A stretch of 44,574 bases of DNA from a phage: the sequence record PX063913.1, one strand, 5' to 3'. Of the stretch, positions 2,970 to 30,471 are shown in pieces (position 1 is the stretch's first letter; each line of letters opens with the position of its first letter). A program made the position numbers and the translations under genes. The notes under the pieces were generated by a model, which made no database searches, had not been told where the DNA came from, and was given only the letters and a program-made list of their open reading frames with translations.

Positions 2970-3440
2970 CTATTGGTTGCAAGTGAATTTTGCGACGTTT
3001 ATTGCGTAAATTTTCGGGACCAAATCACCACACGCCCGACGAATTGCCGCGATGTTCTTCTCGCAATCTTCAATGATGACCAGTTCAGACACGTCCGCGT
3101 AGCAGACCATTTTGAACACGGCGCACGCCTTAAACTCTGGCGGCGGGGTGTCGTCCAGCATGTGGCGCATAAACAACCTGCCTACCGGGAAGACCTCCAA
3201 TTGCTCGGCGGTGGTTTCCCAGCATTCTCGCTGCCGGTTTGTCAGATACGCGATCTCGAAGCCTTGCTCTTTATACATGCGCAGTAGCGGCAGCATATCC
3301 ATGTTAATGTCTTCGCGGACGTGCGCCTTGTGCCACTTCGCCCAGAAGGTGGATTTAGTTTTTATTCCCGGCACCAGGTCGGCACGCGCATCACTTGAAC
3401 CGTTAATAACGCCATCCAGATCACAAATCAGTAGTTTCAT
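2970..3440 (-). CDS. HAD-superfamily phosphatase
   Basis: N-terminal LICDLDGV is the canonical HAD motif I (DxDG[TV]); 156 aa, ATG at 3440. Confidence 0.65.
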   Translation of the reverse strand: MKLLICDLDGVINGSSDARADLVPGIKTKSTFWAKWHKAHVREDINMDMLPLLRMYKEQGFEIAYLTNRQRECWETTAEQLEVFPVGRLFMRHMLDDTPPPEFKACAVFKMVCYADVSELVIIEDCEKNIAAIRRACGDLVPKIYAINVAKFTCNQ

Positions 3441-3661
3441 TTTAAGCTCTCAATAAGGGTGTAACGGGCGCTTCGCGCGGTAAAGGAGTTGCACACGAAA
3501 TGGCAACGCTGAGTCATGACAAGCCAACCGGTGAGGTCAAGGCCCAAGATGTATTCGGGACGAGACGCGCGCACCACACGATTGCGTCGCGGGTCTATGC
3601 AGTAGTCTTTTTGCATTTGGTCTACGACCGCAGGGTCGCGATCAACGATTAAGATATTCAC
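3437..3661 (-). CDS. Hypothetical small protein
   Basis: 74-aa ORF, GTG start at 3661 preceded by AGGAG; overlaps the Dam gene 3' end by 20 nt. Confidence 0.4.
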   Translation of the reverse strand: MNILIVDRDPAVVDQMQKDYCIDPRRNRVVRASRPEYILGLDLTGWLVMTQRCHFVCNSFTARSARYTLIESLK

Positions 3662-4127
3662 GTAGTTCTCCTTCGCTCATTATTTCAATTTGTGCGCTGC
3701 CGCTGGGCGGCGCTTCGTCAAAGATTATCAACTGCTGGCACTTGTTATTGCTCGGCCCGACTTCACCGGTTACAGCGTGTATAAATCGGATACGCCAGTC
3801 CAGAAGAATTATCAGGTTTGCAGTCTTCCGGGCCAACCGCGCCCACTTCGTCGACGTGTCCTGATTCAGTAGCATGACGGTCCGACGTCCATGCGCCGCA
3901 CACTCGACCCACGGCAGCGGATCGGAATACGGCGGGTTGCACCACTTCCACCCTTTCAACTCTGACCAGTCCACATCGAGCGCGCTGTGCTCCGCCGTGA
4001 AGTAACGCGGTAGCAGATGGTTGGCGTCGCTTGCCGCCATGTCATAACGGAATCGGTACTTCCGGCGCAGCGGTTTAAATAAAGCTGGCGGCGTGCGCCA
4101 GCTATCTTTTTGCTCACTCTTCTGCAT
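3642..4127 (-). CDS. DNA N6-adenine methyltransferase (phage Dam-like)
   Basis: WRTPPALF...FRYDMAASDANH...WCNPPYSD matches the phage N6-MTase family including the catalytic NPPY motif. Confidence 0.8.
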   Translation of the reverse strand: MQKSEQKDSWRTPPALFKPLRRKYRFRYDMAASDANHLLPRYFTAEHSALDVDWSELKGWKWCNPPYSDPLPWVECAAHGRRTVMLLNQDTSTKWARLARKTANLIILLDWRIRFIHAVTGEVGPSNNKCQQLIIFDEAPPSGSAQIEIMSEGELREYLNR

Positions 4128-4572
4128 GATCTGGATCTATCGCGTACAGGGCAATTTTCTTATTACTGTTTAGAACGCGTTGCACGCGCTTTGATTCCTC
4201 GGTGCCGAGCGGTCGGCAGTCGGAGTAGTAAGACCCGTTCCCTCGCCACGCAACCAGCACCAGGTCTTTCCGGCCAATCTTAGACGTGCGGCCCTTCGGA
4301 CGCACGTACTCCTCGGCCCGTTTGCAATGCTCACGCAGCCCGTCGGCAGTGATGCGGTTTAGTGCAACGCTGGTGGTGTATCCGGTGCGCTGCATAATCC
4401 CCATCAATTCGAATAGCAGTTCGAAGCGCTCCTCTAACTCCATGCGACGCTTTTCTTCCGTTTCATAGCTTGACAGGTAGGTATCTGCCAGCGCGCTGAC
4501 GCGTTCTGCCTGCTCGCGGGCTTCGAGGCATTGCGCGGCCCAGTAGTTTTTCTCTTCTTGTAAAATTTTCAT
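4114..4572 (-). CDS. Hypothetical protein
   Basis: 152-aa ORF, ATG at 4572 with GGAGA upstream; no recognisable motifs. Confidence 0.5.
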   Translation of the reverse strand: MKILQEEKNYWAAQCLEAREQAERVSALADTYLSSYETEEKRRMELEERFELLFELMGIMQRTGYTTSVALNRITADGLREHCKRAEEYVRPKGRTSKIGRKDLVLVAWRGNGSYYSDCRPLGTEESKRVQRVLNSNKKIALYAIDPDHAEE

Positions 4573-4859: not shown

Positions 4860-4895
4860 TCAATATAATGCAACCAATATGCTTATGCAACCAAT

Positions 4896-7812: not shown

Positions 7813-8094
7813 TTAAGCGACCAATTCAGCAACCAATAAATCACAGTCGGCTATGTTGTCGATGATGCGAACGTCCGCACCGCGGCGGGCCATTCGCTCA
7901 TGTTCTCGTACCTGGTGCGGCTTCGGTTTGCCTCCGGGGCGCTTCACTTCGACGAAAACTATCTTGCCGTTGATGATTATTATCAGGTCGGGCGCTCCTG
8001 CGCGCCCCTCCCATGCCAGTTTTCGGCAGAATCCGCCGACGGCTTTCGCCAGCTTCATAAGGTGACTTTGAATCTTGCCTTCTGGTGTCATCAT
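7813..8094 (-). CDS. VRR-NUC domain nuclease
   Basis: GAPDLIIIINGKIVFVEVKRPGG carries a PD...(E)VK core typical of VRR-NUC; ATG at 8094 overlaps the polymerase stop (ATGA). Confidence 0.7.
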   Translation of the reverse strand: MMTPEGKIQSHLMKLAKAVGGFCRKLAWEGRAGAPDLIIIINGKIVFVEVKRPGGKPKPHQVREHERMARRGADVRIIDNIADCDLLVAELVA

Positions 8095-10382
8095 TTTCTG
8101 TACCTGTACATAATGTCGCCTTCCGCGGCAAGCGGGAAGCCTTTCGCCCAAACAGGCAGGTCGCACATCAGCGCGCACAACTCCTCGGTTGTGTAGTCGT
8201 CGGTATCCGGCACTTCGGTGATCAGTTCATCGTGTACGGACAGTACGATCTCATACCCCGCAGCTTCAACGCCCGGCATGGACCATGCGAGGATATCGCG
8301 GCACAGCGCCTGCACGATGTTTTCCGTCAGTTTGCCGCCGTAGGTGTACTGGAATCCCCACTGGCGCGTCGTCTGATTCTCACCCTGATATTTAATGCGG
8401 GTGCTGGTGCGCTTCTTGCCGGTGTCTTCGTCGATCTCGGTCGTCACTGACAGCGCAATGCCTGGGTAACTCATAATACGCCCCGACGGCAACTCAATTT
8501 TCAACCACCACCCCGCGGCGTTCGGGTCGTCGCGCTCCTCGTCGAAGGTTGGGTCATGCTTCGCCTTCGTGCGGACTATCTTGAGCGCTTTCTTACCATC
8601 CGGGCGAACGTTCGCGCCAGCCCAGTACGCTTTGCCCGGATTGCGGATTGCACACAACACCGCGTCCTCAAGCTCGGCCCAAAAAGCTACCGTCTTCGGG
8701 TGAGCCTCGCGCCACATGCGTTTAATCGCATCACACGTAAGCCATACGTTTTTCGGCAGTATGTAAGTCGGACGCTCGTCCTTCTTGCCCGGCTTCGGCG
8801 GTCGCTTCGCTTCGTTAATGCGGGCGTATTCATAACCACGTTTCGCCGCCGCCCAAATGTGATCGGGGAATGTGCCCTTCATCACTTCCGCCATCGCGTA
8901 AAGGTCGAGGCCCAGATTTTTAGCGAACTGCAAGAACGCCGCCACGCCACCACCATAGCCCAGGCCCAATTCGCACGCCTTACCGATCTGGCGTAAGTCT
9001 TTGCGGTTGGCTTTAATGTATTCTGGGTCAAGGCCGAACATCTTGCCGGCAGTCTCACAATAGATATCGCGACCGGCCCTAAACACCATTAGCGCGGTTT
9101 TCTCGCCAGCGATCCAGGCAAGTCCACGCCCTTCCACGTTGGAGTAGTCCGCTACGACAAACTTCTTACCCTTCGCCGGAATAATGCACCCGCGGACAGT
9201 CGAGGCCGTTAGCTTCGATATGTCATACGCCCAGTGCGCTGTCCCACGTAACAGGGAGTTGATGCCGTTGGTGAGCATGTGCGACCGCACCCAAAAAGCG
9301 ACGTCGCTCTCGCCTTCACGGCGTTTAATCTTCCCTTCGTGGTCGTCGCTATATTCGCCGCGTGCCAGGTTTTGCGGCTGGAAGCCTTTACCGGCCCAGC
9401 GTAGCGTGCGCTTTGCGCCGCCATACTGAAGACACCCACGGCGGCGACCATCGGCGGATAGGCCATTAACGAGCGGATTGTACTTAGTCGACGCCGTGGA
9501 TGACGCACCGAGGCGCATCTCGATAAGCGCTTTGCCTTCGTCCGGGAAGTCTGGATCTTCCAGCAGGTCGTTAAGCGTGGATTTCTGCGCGTTGTGGATT
9601 GTGAACGCAGGCGCGAGGTCGCGCAGCGCGGGCAGGAAGTCATTGCCGGTTAGCTTACCGCCGAAGCGCTCCCAGGCTTCTTCCTTTAATTCTTCCTTAT
9701 GCGCCTGTACCGCTTTGATCGCAGCGCGTGCCAGGTCAACGTCCACATAGAAGCCGCGGTCGTTAATCAACTGGTCAATAAGCAGGATTTCGTCTTCCTT
9801 CGGCGTATTACCCCAGTCCGGTATGCGCCAATAGACTTCCCTCATCGCGATGATATCCAGCGCGGCATAGCGCAGGAATTTAGCCCATTCTTCAGGGTGA
9901 GTCTCGCGGGTGTAGCGGCGGATTTTGTAGGTCTTAGGGGTTGGCTTACAGAAGCGTTTGATCAGCGCCTTGCCAGCCTTATCCTTCGCGTGTTCTGCGT
10001 CAACGCCCAGCACCTGGCATTGCATGTCGAGACTACCCGGCAGCGCGTGTCGGAAGGCCATAATCATGGTGTCTTCGATCTGGCCTACCGGCAGGTCAAT
10101 GCCCCACTTCTCGCGAATAACCAGGCGGTCAAACAGGAGGCCGTTAGCCATCACGATTTTTGCTTTCTTGCGAGATACCCGGCGGAGCGCCTTGCGCAGT
10201 TCACGCGGCATTGTGGGGGACTCGGTGCAATCCCATGTCTGCACGCGGCCCTCGTCGATGGCGTAGGTGCAAATCATAATCTCGGTGGTTGGGTGCTCTG
10301 CGTAGGCGTATGCGCCAACTTTCTTCAGGTCTACCCCGCTAAATGTCTCGGTATCGAGAAACAGGCGTTCGAAGTCTTTCAT
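8091..10382 (-). CDS. DNA polymerase, family A, with 3'-5' exonuclease domain
   Basis: Exo I LFLDTETFSG, Exo III YAALDIIAM, Pol motif A VVADYSNVEGRGLA, motif B RQIGKACELGLGYGGG, motif C VLSVHDELI. Confidence 0.95.
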   Translation of the reverse strand: MKDFERLFLDTETFSGVDLKKVGAYAYAEHPTTEIMICTYAIDEGRVQTWDCTESPTMPRELRKALRRVSRKKAKIVMANGLLFDRLVIREKWGIDLPVGQIEDTMIMAFRHALPGSLDMQCQVLGVDAEHAKDKAGKALIKRFCKPTPKTYKIRRYTRETHPEEWAKFLRYAALDIIAMREVYWRIPDWGNTPKEDEILLIDQLINDRGFYVDVDLARAAIKAVQAHKEELKEEAWERFGGKLTGNDFLPALRDLAPAFTIHNAQKSTLNDLLEDPDFPDEGKALIEMRLGASSTASTKYNPLVNGLSADGRRRGCLQYGGAKRTLRWAGKGFQPQNLARGEYSDDHEGKIKRREGESDVAFWVRSHMLTNGINSLLRGTAHWAYDISKLTASTVRGCIIPAKGKKFVVADYSNVEGRGLAWIAGEKTALMVFRAGRDIYCETAGKMFGLDPEYIKANRKDLRQIGKACELGLGYGGGVAAFLQFAKNLGLDLYAMAEVMKGTFPDHIWAAAKRGYEYARINEAKRPPKPGKKDERPTYILPKNVWLTCDAIKRMWREAHPKTVAFWAELEDAVLCAIRNPGKAYWAGANVRPDGKKALKIVRTKAKHDPTFDEERDDPNAAGWWLKIELPSGRIMSYPGIALSVTTEIDEDTGKKRTSTRIKYQGENQTTRQWGFQYTYGGKLTENIVQALCRDILAWSMPGVEAAGYEIVLSVHDELITEVPDTDDYTTEELCALMCDLPVWAKGFPLAAEGDIMYRYRK

Positions 10383-10549
10383 TGCTTAATCCTCACCACG
10401 GCGTCAGCACTGCCGATCACGGAGAAGATGCCGTCGGAAAGGGTAATCTCCTCGCCGTTGTTGCGAATCTCGGCAACTGTGAAATATTCGCCCAGCATTT
10501 TGGACCATACTTGCATTCCGACTTTTACTTCGCTGGCTTTAATACGCAT
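10379..10549 (-). CDS. Small hypothetical protein (not in ORF track)
   Basis: 56-aa ORF MRIKASEVKVGMQVWSKMLGEYFTVAEIRNNGEEITLSDGIFSVIGSADAVVRIKQ; AGGA 9 nt upstream; stop overlaps the polymerase ATG (ATGA). Confidence 0.45.
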   Translation of the reverse strand: MRIKASEVKVGMQVWSKMLGEYFTVAEIRNNGEEITLSDGIFSVIGSADAVVRIKQ

Positions 10550-10565
10550 TTTTCATTGTCCTATT

Positions 10566-10589
10566 AAAAAGCCCGCATTAAGCGGGCTT
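10566..10589 (-). terminator. Rho-independent terminator (minus strand)
   Basis: On the minus strand AAGCCCGC-ttaat-GCGGGCTT followed by T5, just downstream of the SSB gene stop. Confidence 0.6.
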
Positions 10590-10607
10590 GAATAGTGGGC
10601 TTTGCCC

Positions 10608-11330
10608 TTAACGGCGGCGACGTTTACGTGGCGCTTCGTCTTCGTCATCATCGTCGTCATCGCGGCGCTTGGACTTTTTGGACTTGCGCGGCTTGTCCTC
10701 TTCGTCATCGTCATCACGACGTTTTGACTTTTTGGACTTGCGCGGGCTTTCATCTTCGTCATCGTTGTCCAGGTCTTCGTCGGAGCAAGAAGAACCGCCA
10801 CCGCCGAAGGATTCACCATCATCGCGGAAGCGCAGACCCAAAAGACCAGCACCGAGTCCCTTGCCGTTGGTATTGTTCCACGCCCAGATATCGAGTGACA
10901 CGTTGCAATAACAACCGGAGTAGATCTCCTGGCCTTCGATCTCGTCGCCTTCTACGGTCAGACCTTGTTCCGTCTGCTTCTCGCCGAGTGACGTTTGAAT
11001 GATCGGCTGTTTGAACGATTTGGCGTTGATGTACAACATGCCTTCGAATTCTTCGGTTACTTCGTCGCGCTCGTCACCGTCGCGAACTGCGCATTCCTTA
11101 GAATCCTGGGCGTAGTGGCGGTCCATCCACTTATCAGCATTCTTCTCGGATTTCAGCTTGTCGGTGAGCACTGCGCGCGCTGCCGCTTCCACTTTGTCCA
11201 CCTGCGGATCTTCTTTATCCAGAAGAATCACTGCACGGTATGCCGGTTTTTGACCATCCTGTTTAGGGGTATCGCGTTCCCAAATTTTAAGGAAACATAC
11301 GCGCACATTTTTCAGGTTGACTTTAGCCAT
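10608..11330 (-). CDS. Single-stranded DNA-binding protein (DUF2815 / T7 gp2.5-like)
   Basis: Start at MAKVNLKNVRVCFLKIWE (ATG 11330); YSGCYCNVSLDIWAWNNTNGKGLGAGLLGLRFRDDGESFGGG matches the DUF2815 SSB family. C-terminus is a tandem-duplicated acidic/basic tail ending RKRRRR. Confidence 0.6.
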   Translation of the reverse strand: MAKVNLKNVRVCFLKIWERDTPKQDGQKPAYRAVILLDKEDPQVDKVEAAARAVLTDKLKSEKNADKWMDRHYAQDSKECAVRDGDERDEVTEEFEGMLYINAKSFKQPIIQTSLGEKQTEQGLTVEGDEIEGQEIYSGCYCNVSLDIWAWNNTNGKGLGAGLLGLRFRDDGESFGGGGSSCSDEDLDNDDEDESPRKSKKSKRRDDDDEEDKPRKSKKSKRRDDDDDDEDEAPRKRRRR

Positions 11331-11420
11331 TTTCCAATTCCTCATTTTCACATGTATCGGGGTTATTGTGAGCCACCCCGTTCGGCTTGGTTGTTAATCT
11401 ACTTGGTTGCACCTAAGCGG

Positions 11421-11663
11421 TCAAGCATTTTCGTTAAAAAGATTTCGGGTCACGTAGTTAGTGGCGTTCTCGATCCAGCTTAACGGCGGTCGGTCGATGT
11501 TCTTCTCCACCCAGTCGACGGCAGCGTCACTATACCCGTCATCCAGCCAGCGGGTCGGATGACGAATCATCCACGCCACCATTAACACGCCTTGCACGCA
11601 ATGCAGGATAAAGCCCAGCGCACCGAGCAAAAACATCAATAAGATTGCAAATACTTTATTCAT
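11421..11663 (-). CDS. Small membrane protein
   Basis: N-terminal hydrophobic helix VFAILLMFLLGALGFIL; GAGGA upstream of ATG 11663. Confidence 0.5.
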   Translation of the reverse strand: MNKVFAILLMFLLGALGFILHCVQGVLMVAWMIRHPTRWLDDGYSDAAVDWVEKNIDRPPLSWIENATNYVTRNLFNENA

Positions 11664-13086
11664 TGCTTAAGTCCTCGTCAGTAGCTTCTGACCACGCAGG
11701 ACGCGGGTCGTCGATCGGTGCTAACACCGGTTTAGCTGGCGCGCGTGTGATTTTATCACACAGCTTAGCCCACACTTTCGGTTTTTCGTCCTTCAGTACC
11801 TTCTCGGCATCCGTAGGGCTGAGCAATGTTTCTTTGTACATCACATCGCGCTTGATCCGGGCCTTCGTGAAGATTTCAATCGCTTCGCTCTCGTCCGCCC
11901 ACTTGCGGATCCCTTCCTTACCGGCGACCATCTTGAGGCCCAGCGATTCGCCGTCGCCCGCCATTACCGCCTTGAATACCGCGGACTCGATAGCCTTGAT
12001 GTGCTGGCGCATTGCGCCCAGGCCTTCATAAGCCTTGCGCAGTTCCGCCGCGCTCATAGCGCCTGGTGTGGATTCATTCTTGCCTCGTTTAGCACGTCGG
12101 GCAGCCTTCCGGGCTTCACGGGCCATGTTGCGATCGTGGTTGGCGCATTCTTCCTCGGTAGCCACGCTCACGTCGTCGCCCAGGTCTTCGTCGGTTGCCG
12201 TTGGTGGTGTCATAGTGTCGATTGCGGCCTTCGCCCGGACGCTGCACTGGTCCGCAAATCTGCACCACTGGCACGCATCAACGCTGGGCCGGAAGTCGGC
12301 GCGGGTGAGTCCTTTTTTACCACGGGCGTACGCTTCCAGTGCGGCGATAGCACGCTTGGACGCAAACTTCGCGAATATCTCCAGCGCTTCCACTGAGATA
12401 TCCCACTCTGACGCCCCGCCGCAATACGGCTGGAAGATAACCAGGCGCACGGTCGTAATGTCGTACATGGTTTGCAGCTTGCGCAGCAGGCCGAGCGCGT
12501 ACAACATAAGCTGTTTGTTTTCTTTTGCCTCGACCTTATGTCGCCCGGTCTTCAGGTCGCCAACAATCAGCATGTACGTGCCGTCGGTCTTTTTCATGAC
12601 CATGACCATATCGGCAGTTCCGAACGTCTTAACCTTGTTGCCGTCGATCTCGAAGCCTGAGTGAAGGACGCGGGTAAGATCGGCGCGCATCTCAAGCTGG
12701 ACAAACTCCGCCACTTCAAGGAGCGGACGCCAGTGGTCGATGTATGCATCGCACTGCTTCACCATGTCGTCGTTGACCAGTACGCCGCCTTTCGGTGCTT
12801 TCGGGTGGGCCTTTACTGGCCCCTTGCCTTCGTTCTCGACGTAGCACCCTTTATACGTCTTTGCTGTTATCAGCTTTTCACCGGCGATAATGCGGTTTAG
12901 CACCACTTCAGATACGGTGTGCATACTCGTACCGTTAATCGCGGCTTGCCCGGATTCGTTCGGGATATCTTTTTCCACCACCAGGGCGGCGGGACACCCC
13001 ATCCATTTTTTAGCACCGGATGGGCCAAGTAATGAGTGTTCCGTATTACTACCGGATTGCGTTTTACGTTTTGGTTTAATCGCCAT
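11656..13086 (-). CDS. PD-(D/E)xK nuclease, DUF2800-like (RecB/Cas4-type)
   Basis: N-terminal HSLLGPSGAKKWMGCP and C-terminal Cys cluster CQWCRFADQC are typical of the DUF2800 family that accompanies DUF2815 SSB in phage replication modules. Confidence 0.65.
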   Translation of the reverse strand: MAIKPKRKTQSGSNTEHSLLGPSGAKKWMGCPAALVVEKDIPNESGQAAINGTSMHTVSEVVLNRIIAGEKLITAKTYKGCYVENEGKGPVKAHPKAPKGGVLVNDDMVKQCDAYIDHWRPLLEVAEFVQLEMRADLTRVLHSGFEIDGNKVKTFGTADMVMVMKKTDGTYMLIVGDLKTGRHKVEAKENKQLMLYALGLLRKLQTMYDITTVRLVIFQPYCGGASEWDISVEALEIFAKFASKRAIAALEAYARGKKGLTRADFRPSVDACQWCRFADQCSVRAKAAIDTMTPPTATDEDLGDDVSVATEEECANHDRNMAREARKAARRAKRGKNESTPGAMSAAELRKAYEGLGAMRQHIKAIESAVFKAVMAGDGESLGLKMVAGKEGIRKWADESEAIEIFTKARIKRDVMYKETLLSPTDAEKVLKDEKPKVWAKLCDKITRAPAKPVLAPIDDPRPAWSEATDEDLSNE

Positions 13087-17537: not shown

Positions 17538-17580
17538 ATATTGGTTGCATCCAGCCTGGCACCCTGCTATATTGGTTGCA
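17538..17580 (+). promoter_or_regulatory. Promoter-like region with two direct ATTGGTTGCA motifs
   Basis: ATATTGGTTGCAT ... TATATTGGTTGCA; TTGCAT, 17-nt spacer, TATATT fits a sigma70 promoter 20-50 nt upstream of the gene at 17601. Confidence 0.45.
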
Positions 17581-17600
17581 CACCAACAGGAGGGCGGAAC

Positions 17601-19949: not shown

Positions 19950-20240
19950 ATGGATAAGCTAAACGAGTGGCTATTCGCCCTAGCATGTCTGGCGGGTGGC
20001 TTCGTAGGCGCACGCATTCATGGTGAGGCTACGAAGGGGCCGCTAAACTTCGTTTTGTATGTGGTAGTCGGCTTCCTGTGTGCCATATTTGGCGCACCGG
20101 CTATTGCCGAGTGGGCTGGTTTGTCGGGTGAGCGCACTGTCGCCGGTTTGGGCTTCGTAACCGCAATCTTCTGGATGCCAATCGCCGACCGGATCAGGGA
20201 GACTATTGCGTCGTTCCGACTTCCGGGGGGTGCAAAATGA
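19950..20240 (+). CDS. Holin-like membrane protein
   Basis: 96 aa with three predicted hydrophobic helices, immediately upstream of the endolysin. Confidence 0.55.
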   Translation: MDKLNEWLFALACLAGGFVGARIHGEATKGPLNFVLYVVVGFLCAIFGAPAIAEWAGLSGERTVAGLGFVTAIFWMPIADRIRETIASFRLPGGAK

Positions 20241-20482
20241 TTATCTCCGTCCTGTTGTTTGTTATCATCGGGGCTTCGTCCCTGTTTAACGTGTATGCGC
20301 CGTCCGTCCAGGATGGCATTTTCGGTCGGGTGCTGTATCTGCTAACGGCAATGATCTGTATTATTGGACTGTTGCAAACCGGAGACGTATCTGATACCAC
20401 CTGGACCGCGTTAATCTGGCTGTTTGCATTGCGCACCCTGCGTAATGCTGTTTTGAATGGGGTAAAACATGCGATTCAGTGA
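20237..20482 (+). CDS. Second small membrane protein (holin or antiholin candidate)
   Basis: 81 aa with multiple hydrophobic helices; GGGGGG RBS; overlaps the endolysin start. Confidence 0.45.
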   Translation: MIISVLLFVIIGASSLFNVYAPSVQDGIFGRVLYLLTAMICIIGLLQTGDVSDTTWTALIWLFALRTLRNAVLNGVKHAIQ

Positions 20483-20960
20483 CAACGGTCTAAGATTCAC
20501 GGCAGCATGGGAGGCTTTCAGCCCGGTGCCGTATTTCGCGACCAAGAAAGAGCAGGCCCGCGGCCTGTACACCTGGGGTTATGGTCATACCGGCACTAAT
20601 CCGCCTCGAAGCATTACCCGCGAGGAAGCGCTGGCACTGCTCAAGCGCGATGTGGCGTATGCCGAGGATTGGGTGAACAAATACGCTCATAAGAGCATTA
20701 ACCAGGCGCAATTTGACGCGCTGGTGGACCTGGTAATCAACGCCGGTCCTGGTCCGATCGTACCGGATGACGTCGCGAATGATTTCGATGATGCGGTACG
20801 GTTGGGCGACTGGGCGAAGGTCCGTGCTACGCTGCCGCTGTTCCGCAAGCAAGGCGGGGAAGTGCTCAAGGGTCTGGTGCGCCGTGCGATCGGCAGACAG
20901 GCGTTGTTTGATGGCAAGCAGTGGGACGTTGCCGAGCGAATCGGTCGTAACGCTGCATAA
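20469..20960 (+). CDS. Endolysin, GH24 lysozyme-like
   Basis: FTAAWEAFSPVPYF...GLYTWGYGHTGT matches the phage lysozyme (T4-type muramidase) catalytic region. Confidence 0.75.
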   Translation: MRFSDNGLRFTAAWEAFSPVPYFATKKEQARGLYTWGYGHTGTNPPRSITREEALALLKRDVAYAEDWVNKYAHKSINQAQFDALVDLVINAGPGPIVPDDVANDFDDAVRLGDWAKVRATLPLFRKQGGEVLKGLVRRAIGRQALFDGKQWDVAERIGRNAA

Positions 20961-26122: not shown

Positions 26123-27209
26123 TCAATATATGGCGGATCGCATGATTCGCCGTCACATCTTCACCCAGCGCCTGAGCAATGACCAGGCGCGGAGGGTGTT
26201 GGCTATGTGGGAGAAGTTCCGGCCCACGTTACTGGGTAAGCTGACCGAGTTACTTGATGGTAAAAAGTCCATGAGCAACAAGGCGCTTACCACCCTGTTA
26301 ACGCAACTCGACAAGACCGTAAAAACGGAACTGCGCACCGAGTTTAAGGTGCTGGCTGAAAGCCTCCAGGAGTTTGCCGATACCGAGGCTGATTATCTTG
26401 CCGACACGCTAACGGCAGCGATCCAGCCGGTGGTCGCCGTACCGGCTGTCGAGGTGGTTGGCGTAGTTACCGGTGCGCAGATCGCAGCGACTGCGATGAA
26501 AAACCCGTTCCAGGGTAATACGATGATGCAATGGCCCGATTCATTGTCTGAGTGGACCAGGACGCAGATCGGCAATCAGGTGCGCGCCGGATTCATCCAG
26601 GGCAAGCCGACTATGGAAATTATCGCTGACGTGAGGCGCGCGCTAGGCGGTCGTAGTGCGCAAGCTATCTCGAGCGTTGTTAAATCCGCAGTAAACCACT
26701 ATGCGGCGACCGCCCGCGAACTAATGGTAAAAGCAAATGACGATATTCTCGAAGGTCGCCAATGGTTATCTACATTGGACACGCATACTTCTCCCATGTG
26801 CCAGCTACGCGATCGCCTGTTTTATCCGGTTGATGTTACTCCCGACACCAAAGGAAAGCGCGGCGGGAAAGTGGTGGCTGGATCACAATATGGCGCTGGT
26901 CCAGGCAAGCTACATTATTGCTGCCGCTCGACGGAGACGTGGAAAGTCAAAGGTATGGAAGATTGGCCCAGTGGTAAGCGTCCGGCACTGAAGGCCGACG
27001 CAGGCAGATTGCTGAGTGAGCAGGTCGACGCGCAGACGGATTTCTTCTCATGGGTACAGCGCCAGCCGCGCCATATCCTGGAAGAATTATACGGAGTGCA
27101 ACGCGCCGACCAGATTATGCGCGGCGTGAAAGTGCCGAAGATGTTCACCGATTCCGGCGAACTAATGACTATCGCACAGCTTAAAAACCGGGGGTTATGG
27201 CGTGATTAA
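26106..27209 (+). CDS. Head morphogenesis protein (Mu F / SPP1 gp7-like)
   Basis: Position after the portal; region around TSPMCQLRDR...CCRSTE resembles the Phage_Mu_F family. Confidence 0.6.
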   Translation: MAKTINQYMADRMIRRHIFTQRLSNDQARRVLAMWEKFRPTLLGKLTELLDGKKSMSNKALTTLLTQLDKTVKTELRTEFKVLAESLQEFADTEADYLADTLTAAIQPVVAVPAVEVVGVVTGAQIAATAMKNPFQGNTMMQWPDSLSEWTRTQIGNQVRAGFIQGKPTMEIIADVRRALGGRSAQAISSVVKSAVNHYAATARELMVKANDDILEGRQWLSTLDTHTSPMCQLRDRLFYPVDVTPDTKGKRGGKVVAGSQYGAGPGKLHYCCRSTETWKVKGMEDWPSGKRPALKADAGRLLSEQVDAQTDFFSWVQRQPRHILEELYGVQRADQIMRGVKVPKMFTDSGELMTIAQLKNRGLWRD

Positions 27210-27531
27210 ATATGCAGCGATTGGACTGGTTATCGGTCTGGCGATAGGATTCTGGCTAGGCGACTCCTATCGCGCTGGCGTAGTGGCGGAGGCGGCGCAA
27301 GAAGCGCAAGCCCAAGCCCAACGGCAGCAAACTAAAGTAATCGAGCGCTCCGTGCAGGCAGAACAAGCCCGCGACGTGGAATACCGGACTATCACAAAAG
27401 AGGTTGTTAAATATGTTACGCGTCCTAACCGCCCTGATTGTAGTTTTGACGCTGAGCGCGTGCGGATCAAGCAGCGTGCCGTTGACGCCGCTAACGGAGT
27501 CGGCACTGCGACCGCCGTGCAAGTTCGATAA
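27202..27531 (+). CDS. i-spanin (Rz-like)
   Basis: GTG start; N-terminal transmembrane helix AAIGLVIGLAIGFWLG followed by a Q/A-rich coiled-coil-like region; the o-spanin is embedded in the +1 frame. Confidence 0.6.
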   Translation: MIKYAAIGLVIGLAIGFWLGDSYRAGVVAEAAQEAQAQAQRQQTKVIERSVQAEQARDVEYRTITKEVVKYVTRPNRPDCSFDAERVRIKQRAVDAANGVGTATAVQVR

Positions 27532-27643
27532 CCCGTCTGCGGACCCCGACGAAGATTTGATGATTGACGTGAAAAATATGGAATGCGGGGCGAAGCTGAG
27601 GGCGCAGGTGTTGGAGTTGCAGCAGATAATTAAGGGGCCGTAA
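27413..27643 (+). CDS. o-spanin (Rz1-like outer-membrane lipoprotein)
   Basis: ATG 27413 with AAGAGG at 9 nt; lipoprotein signal MLRVLTALIVVLTLSAC with lipobox LSAC; proline-rich mature part; overlaps and extends past the i-spanin. Confidence 0.6.
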   Translation: MLRVLTALIVVLTLSACGSSSVPLTPLTESALRPPCKFDNPSADPDEDLMIDVKNMECGAKLRAQVLELQQIIKGP

Positions 27644-27654
27644 TGGCCCCTTTT
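27634..27654. terminator. Bidirectional rho-independent terminator
   Basis: GGGGCC-gtaat-GGCCCC then TTTT; sits between the convergent o-spanin and the minus-strand gene. Confidence 0.65.
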
Positions 27655-27657
27655 CCG

Positions 27658-28422
27658 TTAGCGAGGAATGCCGCAAATCTCGTTGAGTGTTTTCACATCC
27701 AGCGCCACCGCCGTGGATTTTGGCTTGTCCGGGTAAGGGATGAATTGCTCAACTTCAGGCCATGCCTTGATCAGCTTCTTATCGGTATTGTGCATATCCA
27801 GCACGCCGGTAACAGTTAGTTTGAACGCGTCATACTTAGCCCGCAACTCGCGGCGGGCCTTGTCGTTACGGTCCAGGCGCTTGCAGAAATCATGGTCCGC
27901 CGGGTAGTCTATACGGCCGCGTGGCTTATATATCGGCAGCGCTTTCCCATCCTCGTCCAACTCGCACACTGACGCTAACATAATTTCCTCATACCCAGGT
28001 ACGATATCGCCGAGATCAGGAGACAGCTTATTCATGTATTTATACTCCCAGTATCCGCGATGTACGCGGTATTGGCGACCGTCACCGCTCAAGGACAAGG
28101 TGCGAACATTTCCGCCTGCGTTGATTTCGAAAGTGGCGTCGTAAACGCTGCCGATACCTTTCGGGCGGTCGGTGTTATAACTATACGTCGCCTTGTTGGT
28201 GTATACACAGACGCCGTACATCTGCGACGGGTCATCGCCGATTGCTTCAATGCGCGCGAGTAGCTCGGCGAACGTGCGAATGCCTTCTGGCATACAGTCC
28301 AGCGTAATGGCGTACGCCAGGTCGCGCGAGTCCATCATTATTGATTTGGCTTCTGTCGCGATTTCGTGGTCGCGCAGGATGTTAGCCAGGATCTGATTTT
28401 TAATGTCTTTCGTCAGTCTCAT
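27658..28422 (-). CDS. Hypothetical protein, reverse-oriented gene inside the structural module
   Basis: 254 aa from ATG 28422 (MRLTKDIKN..., GAGGA upstream); own promoter region with ATTGGTTGCA motifs and a bidirectional terminator; no recognisable motifs. Confidence 0.55.
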   Translation of the reverse strand: MRLTKDIKNQILANILRDHEIATEAKSIMMDSRDLAYAITLDCMPEGIRTFAELLARIEAIGDDPSQMYGVCVYTNKATYSYNTDRPKGIGSVYDATFEINAGGNVRTLSLSGDGRQYRVHRGYWEYKYMNKLSPDLGDIVPGYEEIMLASVCELDEDGKALPIYKPRGRIDYPADHDFCKRLDRNDKARRELRAKYDAFKLTVTGVLDMHNTDKKLIKAWPEVEQFIPYPDKPKSTAVALDVKTLNEICGIPR

Positions 28423-28444
28423 TTTTGTGTCCTCGTTGTTGGTG

Positions 28445-28469
28445 TGCAACCAATATATTGCAACCAAGA
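28445..28469. promoter_or_regulatory. Divergent promoter region with two TGCAACCAA motifs
   Basis: TGCAACCAAT-atat-TGCAACCAAG between the minus-strand gene (start 28422) and the scaffold gene (start 28572). Confidence 0.4.
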
Positions 28470-28571
28470 CAAGGATGGCAAGCTAATTTTGCGATTATTT
28501 TTATCGCTGATAATATTAGAAGCGTGAAGTCGAGCGGGTGGCCTGCTCTGCCACAATCCCAGGGGGATAGC

Positions 28572-29273
28572 ATGAAACTTACTAAAGCAGAATATGACGC
28601 GTTGCCGGAAGGTATGAAGGCGCTTTTTGTTGCCGATGGTGACGGGTATAAATCAACGTTCATGACCGCCGAAGAAGTACAGGCGGAGATCAAGGGTCTG
28701 AAAGACAACAACGCGAAGCTGGTTAGCGAGAAGAAAGCAGAAGCCGAACGCCGCGCCGAAGCCGAGCGCCTTGCGAAAGAGAAAGAGGAAGCCGCCGCGC
28801 GCAAAAATGGCGACCTCGAAGCGATCGACAAGTCCTGGAAAGATAAGTTTGCAAAACACGAAGCAGACACATCGGGAAAAATCGAAGCCTACCGCAAGCA
28901 GATCCACGATCTAACCATCGGCAGCGCTGCCAAAGACCTGGCGTCGAAGCTGTTCGGTAAGAATGCGGGCATCATGCAACGCCACGTAATGGACCGCCTG
29001 ACGCTGGAAGACGGCGAAGACGGCAGCTTGAAAGTGCGTGTCTTGCAGGATGGCAAACCGTCCGCGCTGACTATGGAAGAGCTTGAAAAAGAGTTCCGTA
29101 ATAACGCCGATTTTGCATCCGTCCTGGCTGGCACGCCAGCCGGTGGTGCGCCGAGCAAACCGACGCATGTTGTCGAAGATGTGAAGTCGAAAATCTCTAT
29201 GGGCCACAGCTTCGGCATCACCGATCTGACGAAACAGGCTGGTGAAATCATCGCTAAAATGGGCGACGAGTAA
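28572..29273 (+). CDS. Scaffolding protein (putative)
   Basis: Start at MKLTKAEYD (ATG 28572, GGGGGA upstream); charged, E/K/A-rich; sits between the morphogenesis gene and the capsid gene. Confidence 0.55.
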   Translation: MKLTKAEYDALPEGMKALFVADGDGYKSTFMTAEEVQAEIKGLKDNNAKLVSEKKAEAERRAEAERLAKEKEEAAARKNGDLEAIDKSWKDKFAKHEADTSGKIEAYRKQIHDLTIGSAAKDLASKLFGKNAGIMQRHVMDRLTLEDGEDGSLKVRVLQDGKPSALTMEELEKEFRNNADFASVLAGTPAGGAPSKPTHVVEDVKSKISMGHSFGITDLTKQAGEIIAKMGDE

Positions 29274-29370: not shown

Positions 29371-30471
29371 ATGTCTTTAACAGTGTTCCAGCGTAAACTC
29401 GTCACCGCGGTTACGCAAATGATCCCCGACAACCTGAACGTGTTCAACGCTGCCGCTAACGGTGCTGTTGTTCTCGGTACGGGTGAAGTGCTGAAGGACG
29501 TTGTAGAAAAAATGTCCGTAGGCTTGATCGCCAACCTTGTTACCGACCGTAACGCCTACGCCCCTGTAGGTACTCCGGCGACCGCAAAAGTGCTGGCGCG
29601 TATGCTGACCAACTCAGTTAACCTTTCCGCGAAAGTGGGTCCGGTAGCAATCACTAAGGCTATGATGGCTAAGATCGAAACCAACGTTAACAGCGTTGCG
29701 GCTGAGATCGCGGCCCAGGCTACTCAAGCGATTATGCTGCACTACCTGAAAGCGGGTATCGGTGCGGGCAAAGCGGCTATCGAAAGCAACGCAGAGGCAA
29801 ACTACACCCAACCGGCGCGCGTTGACGGCGTTGGCGGTCGTACCTTCCCGACCCTGGCAGACTTCCCGCTGGCAGCTTCCAAGTTCGGCGATCAGGCGTC
29901 TTTGATTAAATCCTGGTTTATGGACGGCGTTACCTGGGCAAACTTCATCGCATACCAGGCGCTCCCATCTGCCGAGCAGGTATTCGCGATCGGCGATCTG
30001 CAGGTAATGGGCGACGGCCTGGGTCGCCGTTTCATTATCTCCGATGCCGCGGCTGACGCGATGGGCGCGGGTAAAATGCTGGGCCTGGTCCCTGGCGCGG
30101 TTGCAGTTACCACCAACGGCCTTGATATGCTGGCGCAGGAAAAAGGCGGTAACGAGAACATTGAGCGCTGGTGGCAGGGCGAGTTCGACTTCAACGTGGC
30201 TGTTAAAGGCTATCGACTGAAGGCGTCCGCTCGCACCCCGATCGAAGGTGTACGCTCGTTCAAACTGGACGATATCACCACTAAGGATAACTGGGAACTG
30301 GACCAGGGCCAGGTAGACAACGCACCGGCAACCGTTCAAGATGTTGGCGCGGTTGGTGACGGCGATACTAAAGGCCGTCGTAAAACCCAGGCTGCGCAGG
30401 CAGTGCCTACCCGTCACATCAAGGAAACGGCGGGCGTACTGGTTACGCTGACTGCGACTACCGCGTCTTAA
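29371..30471 (+). CDS. Major capsid protein
   Basis: 366 aa with AAAGGA RBS, follows the scaffold and is followed by a strong terminator; assignment by position and size. Confidence 0.7.
   Translation: MSLTVFQRKLVTAVTQMIPDNLNVFNAAANGAVVLGTGEVLKDVVEKMSVGLIANLVTDRNAYAPVGTPATAKVLARMLTNSVNLSAKVGPVAITKAMMAKIETNVNSVAAEIAAQATQAIMLHYLKAGIGAGKAAIESNAEANYTQPARVDGVGGRTFPTLADFPLAASKFGDQASLIKSWFMDGVTWANFIAYQALPSAEQVFAIGDLQVMGDGLGRRFIISDAAADAMGAGKMLGLVPGAVAVTTNGLDMLAQEKGGNENIERWWQGEFDFNVAVKGYRLKASARTPIEGVRSFKLDDITTKDNWELDQGQVDNAPATVQDVGAVGDGDTKGRRKTQAAQAVPTRHIKETAGVLVTLTATTAS

Follow-up and report, generated by a model that had tools for sequence, protein, structure and literature searches.

What is a gene read from the minus strand doing among the plus-strand lysis and head genes of a phage, and what could its protein be for? 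The gene in question lies at positions 27658–28422 of sequence record PX063913.1, a stretch of 44,574 nucleotides (nt) of phage DNA, the whole of which is called the window here. There is hardly any doubt that it is the nmad5 gene of the genus Dhillonvirus, an orthologue of the genes of phages SM_A8 and SM_S22, encoding a full-length member of the phage-specific Pfam family PF18757. As such it is already known, with a curated family and a genetically studied orthologue in the same genus, and is not a discovery. The mechanism proposed below, that of a non-catalytic binding protein belonging to the phage replication and recombination gene set, displaced to the head cluster and provided with an early or middle promoter of its own, is put forward tentatively and falls a little short of an even chance; the explanation as a whole, identity and mechanism together, is the best found and is about evenly balanced between right and wrong.

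The region of about 2.4 kb around nmad5 has 94–96% nucleotide identity to many Escherichia/Shigella Dhillonvirus phages. The close relatives of the window include JLBYU60, Zumzum, StarDew, SM_A8 and SM_S22, and 159 phage records match in all. Taken together, this identity and this number of records indicate that the window is approximately the whole genome of an HK578-like siphophage of that genus. Residues 1–253 of the protein align with positions 1–206 of the 206-position profile of PF18757 (‘Nucleotide modification associated domain 5’), with a score of 191.5 bits against a cutoff of 27 (E = 2.4e-56), and the protein also matches phrog_1965, a PHROG of unknown function (E = 1.8e-62). The preliminary description of the locus, which had been unable to place the protein in any family, is superseded in this respect. 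All the signature residues of the family are present (R2, L3, T4, I11, T213, K216, L217, W221, P222, E223, P229, L246, N247, G251 and P253); the signatures, based on conservation in 137 representatives, are R-L-T...I...I..N, T-x-K-[KR]-L-x3-W-P-E and a C-terminal L-N-x3-G-[LI]-P. The window protein is 91.7% identical in amino-acid (aa) sequence to that of SM_A8 and 97% identical to that of Zumzum, in gapless alignments, so residue numbering is common to these phages. The label ‘Nmad5 domain-containing protein’ is already attached to the orthologue in some GenBank records. No meaningful match to Nmad5 was obtained in scans of NCBIfam and PADLOC, the latter being a library of defence proteins rather than anti-defence proteins, and a profile search of a set of 5.8 billion proteins added few distant members.

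The ratio of non-synonymous to synonymous substitution rates (dN/dS) among 12 Dhillonvirus orthologues is 0.12, indicating purifying selection and hence a real, functional gene. The minus-strand open reading frame (ORF) extends from 27658 to 28467 (269 aa) if read from a TTG, and comprises 254 aa from the ATG at 28422. The ATG is taken as the true start because a GAGGA ribosome-binding site precedes it at a distance of 7 nt and because the N-terminus M-R-L-T is kept throughout the family, with R2 and L3 in 86% of 137 sequences. The TTG at 28467 was rejected as a start, as it lies inside promoter motifs and would displace this conserved N-terminus. The ORF listing and the plus-strand flanking genes bear out the earlier view of a 254-aa ORF running against the surrounding late operon, and the ribosome-binding site that had been described as good is indeed kept in three relatives. 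In SM_S22, the annotated coding sequence (CDS; L003 5005–6009) has been over-extended to 334 aa and overlaps the scaffold gene.

The preliminary description had proposed a check of presence and absence across related phages; this was run, and nmad5 was found in about 146–150 of 157 Dhillonvirus-like records, with few truncations or losses. Teewinot (NC_073053.1) retains only the last 98 nt of the gene, and SM_S24 (PP920554.1) has a truncated copy covering residues 1–176. Two metagenomic proteins (P0053 and P0047) are apparent deletion fusions in which only the conserved C-terminal 43–63 residues of Nmad5 are left. The gene had been thought to have the layout of a moron or accessory gene, and this description holds in part: nmad5 is predicted to be transcribed separately and its orthologue can be deleted, but it is not sporadic and is under purifying selection. 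The patchy, moron-like element at this locus is a different one. In 17 of the 30 closest records there is an insert of about 350 bp, for which the insertion point in the window would be at about 28423–28440. In JLBYU60 (L002 2957–3325) it encodes a 122-aa ORF belonging to phrog_24635, of unknown function, with no match in Pfam and no meaningful match in NCBIfam or PADLOC. This ORF has the conserved promoter on one side and nmad5 on the other, with a hairpin of its own after it, giving a two-gene operon; SM_A8-type and JLBYU60-type phages have it, unlike the window and SM_S22. In other respects the correspondence with the two studied phages is close, the window gene having the same length and numbering as that of SM_A8, the same spanin–scaffold position and orientation as both, and the same conserved promoter region as SM_S22, although the experiments were done in those phages.

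The predicted structure does not resemble a known enzyme. An exhaustive search with a profile hidden Markov model (HMM) returned 380 cluster representatives at E ≤ 1e-3, from which an alignment of 137 sequences was made. AlphaFold2 run on this alignment gave a confident model (predicted local distance difference test, pLDDT, 88.9; predicted template modelling score, pTM, 0.82), which replaced a model from a seven-sequence alignment (pLDDT 54.7). From the N-terminus, it has three helices, a small region of beta-sheet and a helix of 30 residues, followed by two short helices and one at the C-terminus. Neither a solved structure nor a known enzyme fold matched the model; a search of the family profile against the sequences of the PDB found nothing, and a single-sequence phmmer search of the same sequences returned only noise (E ≥ 0.7). 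Foldseek gave eight matches at E ≤ 0.001 in BFVD (1.5e-28 to 1.1e-5, with TM-scores of at most 0.79); these carry Nmad5 or nucleotide-modification-associated names, or are otherwise unnamed or uncharacterised phage proteins, and the window protein shares its predicted fold with the other Nmad5 members among them.

Within the alignment, the conserved positions are mostly structural (R2, L3, T4, I11, G104, P167, T213, L217, W221, P222, E223, P229, L246, N247, G251 and P253). No clear set of catalytic residues is conserved among the 137 sequences, and H177, the only conserved histidine, is found in 61% of members. Constraint is concentrated towards the C-terminus, with a dN/dS of 0.027 for residues 171–254 and 0.19 for residues 46–170, and a homologue with only 36% overall identity still has the same last 19 residues. 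DSSP assigns single bridge residues at positions 2 and 213 of the model, and these may pair, which would join the conserved N-terminus to the T213 motif. Typical members of PF18757/phrog_1965 have about 200 aa (mEp235_037 and the Stx-phage homologues, for example) and fall in the same family by HMM. They have the N-terminal R-L-T, the C-terminal T..K[KR]L...WPE...P...LN...G[LI]P and the predicted fold in common with the Dhillonvirus protein, which differs from them in its 254 aa and its extra, faster-evolving middle segments. No transmembrane segment was found in the window protein, the maximum 19-residue hydropathy being 0.87; a membrane or superinfection-exclusion role is therefore rejected. 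That role had been among those suggested earlier, and no integrase or repressor was found either in a Pfam scan of 35 non-structural ORFs of the window.

The family name points to DNA modification. Iyer et al. reportedly named the Nmad family in 2013 on the basis of gene-neighbourhood association with base-modification genes. A 2025 paper calls Nmad5 a DNA-modification enzyme, citing the comparative-genomics paper that named the Nmad domains (PMC11846954). The reading of Nmad5 as a DNA or nucleotide modification enzyme, or as an obligatory cofactor of one, with the Tmn defence system discussed below sensing the modified DNA, finds support in the M6-like Yuaviruses, in which the gene adjoins those for a 5-hydroxymethyldeoxyuridine (5-hmdU) DNA kinase and a deoxyuridine (dU) hydroxymethylase. 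The Yuavirus proteins (M6, SN1 and Lydia) have a C-terminal domain homologous to that of the window protein (about 38% identity over residues 173–253). However, the genes found beside Nmad5 in those phages, for dU hydroxymethylase, 5-hmdU DNA kinase and aGPT-Pplases, have no counterpart in the window, where the scan of 35 ORFs detected none of these three nor any other hypermodification gene, and Dam methylase was the only DNA-modification gene. The window neighbours of nmad5, encoding spanins and a scaffold protein, are not modification genes either, which leaves the membership of the sequence family unaffected. The enzyme label thus rests on a gene-neighbourhood association in one phage group, and is unsupported by the fold, the conserved residues and most genomic contexts.

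To survey these contexts, ORFs were called in 106 IMG/VR loci, and clustering of the Nmad5 proteins at 80% identity gave 30 groups, 27 of them from outside Dhillonvirus. In 141 ORFs neighbouring Nmad5 in these 27, Pfam identified HTH_3 (8) and Peptidase_S24 (7) domains (cI-type repressors), PDDEXK_1 (7), DUF2800 (6), Enc34-type single-stranded DNA-binding protein (SSB; 6), PolA (6) and Rv2179c-like 3'-5' exonuclease (3), and the 5-hmdU kinase family and an N6/N4 DNA methylase once each. The gene order DUF2800, SSB, Nmad5, PolA was confirmed in one locus (L042), with close variants in four others (L077, L063, L102 and L032), and in two metagenomic contigs Nmad5 follows an SF2 helicase or precedes a RecD-like helicase (L009 and L012). 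In Vibrio phage Athena1 the next gene downstream of the homologue is that for replication protein O. In lambdoid phages (mEp235, PhiR12_2 and Stx phages), it is in the pL operon between N/Nun and cIII-kil plus recombination genes, an early operon, whereas in Dhillonviruses it is in the head cluster. The hypermodification context of the Yuaviruses is a minority case. In the window, the replication module (8094–13086, minus strand) contains the same DUF2800, SSB and PolA genes, with an SSB–PolA gap of 228 bp and no Nmad5 inside it; nmad5 is on the same strand, about 17 kb away, inside the head cluster.

Experimental evidence comes from the work of Yamashita et al. (2025, Commun Biol; PMC11846954) on nmad5 of SM_A8 (CDS7) and SM_S22 (CDS6) and the defence system Tmn, a KAP-family NTPase. 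Mutants of SM_A8, and of SM_S22 lacking its anti-Tmn gene, that escaped Tmn carried the same nmad5 substitution, K216E in SM_A8, which is K296E in the over-extended SM_S22 annotation. Sensitivity to Tmn returned when the wild-type residue was put back, and introduction of the mutation conferred resistance (PMC11846954). Deletion of nmad5 was viable and left the phage Tmn-sensitive, and wild-type Nmad5 was not protective against Tmn; attempts to clone the gene failed, apparently due to toxicity, which precluded its co-expression with Tmn (PMC11846954). As deletion does not give escape, Nmad5 cannot be the sole trigger of Tmn, and as it does not phenocopy K216E, the mutant protein would act by an altered or gained interaction rather than by simple destruction of function.

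Lys216 is present in the window and invariant in the 12 Dhillonvirus orthologues. Of the 137 family sequences, 80 have K at position 216, 23 have R and 19 have Q, which makes 103 with K or R. The six commonest residues listed there include no acidic one, and the position lies within the most conserved motif, T213-x-K-K-L217-x3-W221-P222-E223. Judged from this alignment, K216E is a charge reversal in the most conserved patch of the family. An interaction between proteins has a precedent in T2, in which the early phage protein RIIB activates Tmn by direct binding (2026 preprint, PMC13001434). A single RIIB residue, D219, decides activation but not binding, RIIB by itself activates Tmn, and the T2 escape mutants include RIIB nonsense mutations; this preprint makes no mention of Dhillonviruses (PMC13001434). 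Direct binding of RIIB to Tmn makes a protein-interaction reading of the nmad5 result natural. RIIB and Nmad5, likened by phenotype only, are both non-structural proteins in which a single charge-changing substitution abolishes Tmn defence, but loss of RIIB gives escape and deletion of nmad5 does not.

The sigma-70-like promoter of nmad5 (Table 1) is a predicted site, proposed from its consensus match and its conservation. The arrangement TTGCCA-18 nt-TATATT is not above chance by itself (one found against 1.6 expected), and the whole promoter region is conserved in Pandora71, SM_S22 and JLBYU60. One of two direct copies of the 9-mer TTGGTTGCA is located in the promoter spacer and the other overlaps the -10 element and the predicted start site; the pair looks like an operator. 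Throughout the window, TTGGTTGCA has 13 exact copies, mostly intergenic and paired, and with one mismatch allowed there are 21 matches, against 11.6 ± 3.1 in shuffled sequences, none of 100 shuffles reaching 21. Its sites (2960–2981, 4869–4894, 11403, 14322, 17541–17580, 18300, 21209, 28445–28467 and 44549) give it the look of a candidate phage-wide operator or promoter element, and the pair at 2960/2973 forms a perfect palindrome, TGCAACCAA-tagg-TTGGTTGCA. Copies of TTGGTTGCA overlap -35, spacer and -10 positions of sigma-70-like promoters.

A 21-nt sequence, TATATTGGTTGCACACCAACA, comprising the -10 element and the initial transcribed region, is identical at the nmad5 promoter and at about 17568–17588 on the plus strand, and in both places (nmad5 and about 17570) a ribosome-binding site and an ATG come after it. 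The promoter at 2960, which belongs to the early cluster on the minus strand, is similar to that of nmad5 in its -35 region and the sequence upstream. We infer that transcription of nmad5 is probably separate from that of the surrounding late operon and starts from a promoter type that serves the non-structural regions. The earlier proposal of a separate promoter with motifs at 28445–28469 therefore survives in its main part, with two exact motif copies in a conserved region, but the leading A of the motif as then given is present on the proximal copy only. At the other end of the gene, a GC-rich hairpin is probably the terminator for both the o-spanin gene and nmad5. Compared with shuffled sequence, it folds with z-scores of -2.3 (plus strand) and -3.0 (minus strand), and it is kept after nmad5 in Dhillonvirus-type loci, including a lineage with an Nmad5 identity of only 64%. 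A consensus terminator scan did not call the hairpin, and its U-tract (UUAAUUAU) is weak on the strand of nmad5, so the ‘bidirectional terminator’ of the preliminary description can be regarded as plausible only.

In the mechanism proposed, Nmad5 would be a small alpha/beta binding protein, not an enzyme, and would belong functionally to the early or middle DNA replication and recombination set of the phage. In Dhillonviruses the gene may have left its usual neighbours, the SSB and DNA polymerase genes, for the head cluster, while remaining on the same strand as the replication genes and keeping a promoter of the non-structural type, which would mean that Nmad5 is probably made before, or independently of, the products of the surrounding late operon. 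The working surface would consist of the R2-L3-T4 patch together with T213-K215-K216-L217-W221-P222-E223 and the invariant C-terminal helix L246-N247...G251-I-P253, and could bind DNA or a protein partner. K216E would reverse the charge where about three quarters of family members have a basic residue, and the altered interaction would leave Tmn unable to fire. If Nmad5 is such a replication or recombination accessory, escape from Tmn reflects a changed protein interaction and not the loss of a DNA mark. A broader reading seems quite unlikely: Nmad5 would be a widespread non-enzymatic component of replication and recombination that has been misnamed, and KAP NTPases of the Tmn type would survey replication assemblies generally, by way of RIIB in T-even phages and an Nmad5 complex in Dhillonviruses. 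Were it true, the R2/T213/K216/WPE patch would be the contact coupling the complex to the sensor, which would explain escape by charge reversal as opposed to deletion.

Several points weigh against the proposed mechanism. Gene neighbourhood is circumstantial evidence, and genes in the metagenomic loci were called crudely, as the longest ORFs that do not overlap. Genes for anti-defence and host takeover, such as ral, sieB, kil and gp17-like genes, also typically occupy the position that Nmad5 has in the lambdoid pL operon. The Yuavirus neighbourhood has already been described, the window protein is mildly acidic (isoelectric point 6.1, against a family median of 8.15), an enzyme of unprecedented fold is conceivable, and the promoter is a predicted one, based on a consensus match and conservation. 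The main rival, itself fairly unlikely, is a host-takeover or anti-defence inhibitor, an early protein that blocks a host nuclease, a restriction or defence component or a replication factor, and in which K216E retargets or strengthens binding such that Tmn is neutralised. The apparent toxicity behind the failed cloning of the orthologue (PMC11846954) would fit such a protein, and K216E behaves as a gain of function, because deletion gives no escape. In lambdoid phages the homologue is found in the accessory slot of pL, between N and cIII/kil, one surveyed neighbour is a gp17-type superinfection-exclusion escape protein, the invariant C-terminal peptide resembles a binding module, and the gene is dispensable, with the natural truncations of SM_S24 and Teewinot. 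However, wild-type Nmad5 gives no protection against Tmn, the sole defence examined (PMC11846954), and near-universal presence in the genus under purifying selection is unlike the fast evolution and patchiness of anti-defence genes. Placement between SSB and PolA in several lineages would also be unusual for a gene of this kind; the absence of a match to any PADLOC model counts little, given the content of that library. The anti-defence role suggested earlier is thus right in that the orthologue interacts with the Tmn defence, but not in the sense of protection by the wild-type protein (PMC11846954).

Modification of DNA as the basis of Tmn sensing is very unlikely. Besides the M6-like Yuavirus arrangement, it can draw on a 5-hmdU kinase neighbour in one of the 27 surveyed clusters, but Nmad5 has no known enzyme fold and no clear conserved catalytic set, the scanned ORFs of the window include Dam and none of the hypermodification genes, most Nmad5 contexts lack modification genes, and the unchanged Tmn sensitivity after deletion of nmad5 is hard to square with the sensing of an Nmad5-dependent mark. 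Another possibility, that Nmad5 is itself the pattern recognised by Tmn, as RIIB is in T2, with K216E removing the recognition contact, seems highly improbable. The occurrence of the same substitution at the equivalent residue of two different phages, with sensitivity restored by reversion (PMC11846954), and the decisive role of one residue of an early protein in T2 (PMC13001434) would both fit, but the deletion of a sole trigger should give escape, as RIIB nonsense mutations do in T2, and the nmad5-deleted phage is still sensitive; the failure of cloning precluded the corresponding co-expression of Nmad5 with Tmn (PMC11846954). It is scarcely credible that Nmad5 is a structural or assembly protein of the virion. 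Its position between the spanin and scaffold genes is all that speaks for this, and set against it are the opposite strand and separate predicted promoter, the viable deletion of the orthologue and the location of homologues in replication or immunity regions rather than in structural modules. Homology to a virion structural protein, which the preliminary description had named as a finding that would count against an accessory role, was looked for in Pfam, PHROGs and BFVD, and no structural-protein family or fold was matched.

Table 1. Coordinates in the window of nmad5, its regulatory sequences and the genes discussed with it.
Feature	Position	Strand	Basis or remark
nmad5 CDS, 254 aa	27658..28422 (stop codon 27658-27660)	-	ORF, Pfam, PHROGs, dN/dS
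Lys216 codon, AAG	27775..27777	-	Sequence read; K216E site of SM_A8
Ribosome-binding site GAGGA	28430..28434	-	7 nt upstream of ATG; kept in Pandora71, SM_S22, JLBYU60
Predicted sigma-70-like promoter: TTGCCA (28476-28481), 18-nt spacer, TATATT (28452-28457)	28452..28481	-	Scan, 10/12
Two direct TTGGTTGCA 9-mers	28445-28453, 28459-28467	-	Exact copies
GC-rich hairpin AAGGGGCC-GTAAT-GGCCCCTT	27632-27652	both	Fills the 14-nt gap between o-spanin and nmad5 stop codons
Rz-like i-spanin gene	27202-27531	+	PHROGs, E 4.5e-36
o-spanin gene	27413-27643	+	PHROGs, E 2.5e-26; overlaps i-spanin gene
Head scaffolding protein gene	28572-29273	+	phrog_206, E 2.9e-50; divergent from nmad5
Major capsid protein gene	29371-30471	+	Downstream of scaffold gene
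Family A DNA polymerase (PolA) gene	8094-10382	-	Pfam
Enc34-type SSB gene	10611-11351	-	Pfam
DUF2800/PD-(D/E)XK nuclease gene	11659-13086	-	Pfam

The spanin genes converge on the 3' end of nmad5 and the scaffold gene diverges from its 5' end. A candidate divergent promoter, TTGCGA-16 nt-TAATAT, is present upstream of the scaffold gene (28482–28520, plus strand; 8/12, below the scan threshold), in the same conserved intergenic region as the nmad5 promoter.

Two other minus-strand ORFs of the window have a bearing on defence. The 152-aa ORF at 4117–4572 is 81% identical to SM_S22 CDS0035, which is annotated as ‘DNA ligase’ and most likely corresponds to ORF35, described by Yamashita et al. (2025) as an anti-Tmn protein. 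The close homologues of this anti-Tmn protein that were tested against the reference Tmn (PLG026) showed at best limited activity, or none (PMC11846954). For the engineering of phages for therapy, it is relevant that the window phage has K216 in its wild-type form and that its anti-Tmn homologue shares only 81% identity with the SM_S22 protein, which is active. The second ORF concerns Ksap1, a Dhillonvirus protein that activates the Klebsiella Avs2 defence (PMC11564622). Ksap1, the trigger of KpAvs2, was considered for nmad5 and rejected, being a 74-aa protein encoded between methyltransferase and phosphatase genes. A 73-aa ORF at 3440–3661, between a Dam methylase gene (3645–4127) and a HAD-family phosphatase gene (2973–3440), fits the published account of Ksap1 in size and position, a likeness by description only (PMC11564622).

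The spanin genes (27202–27643), which are arranged tail to tail with nmad5 and have the terminator hairpin in common with it, are located about 6 kb from the holin and endolysin genes (19950–20960, plus strand). The holin was assigned by synteny with SM_S22, and a Phage_lysozyme match was obtained by Pfam at 19950–20957 among the ORFs scanned. This distance indicates that the lysis cassette of the phage is split.

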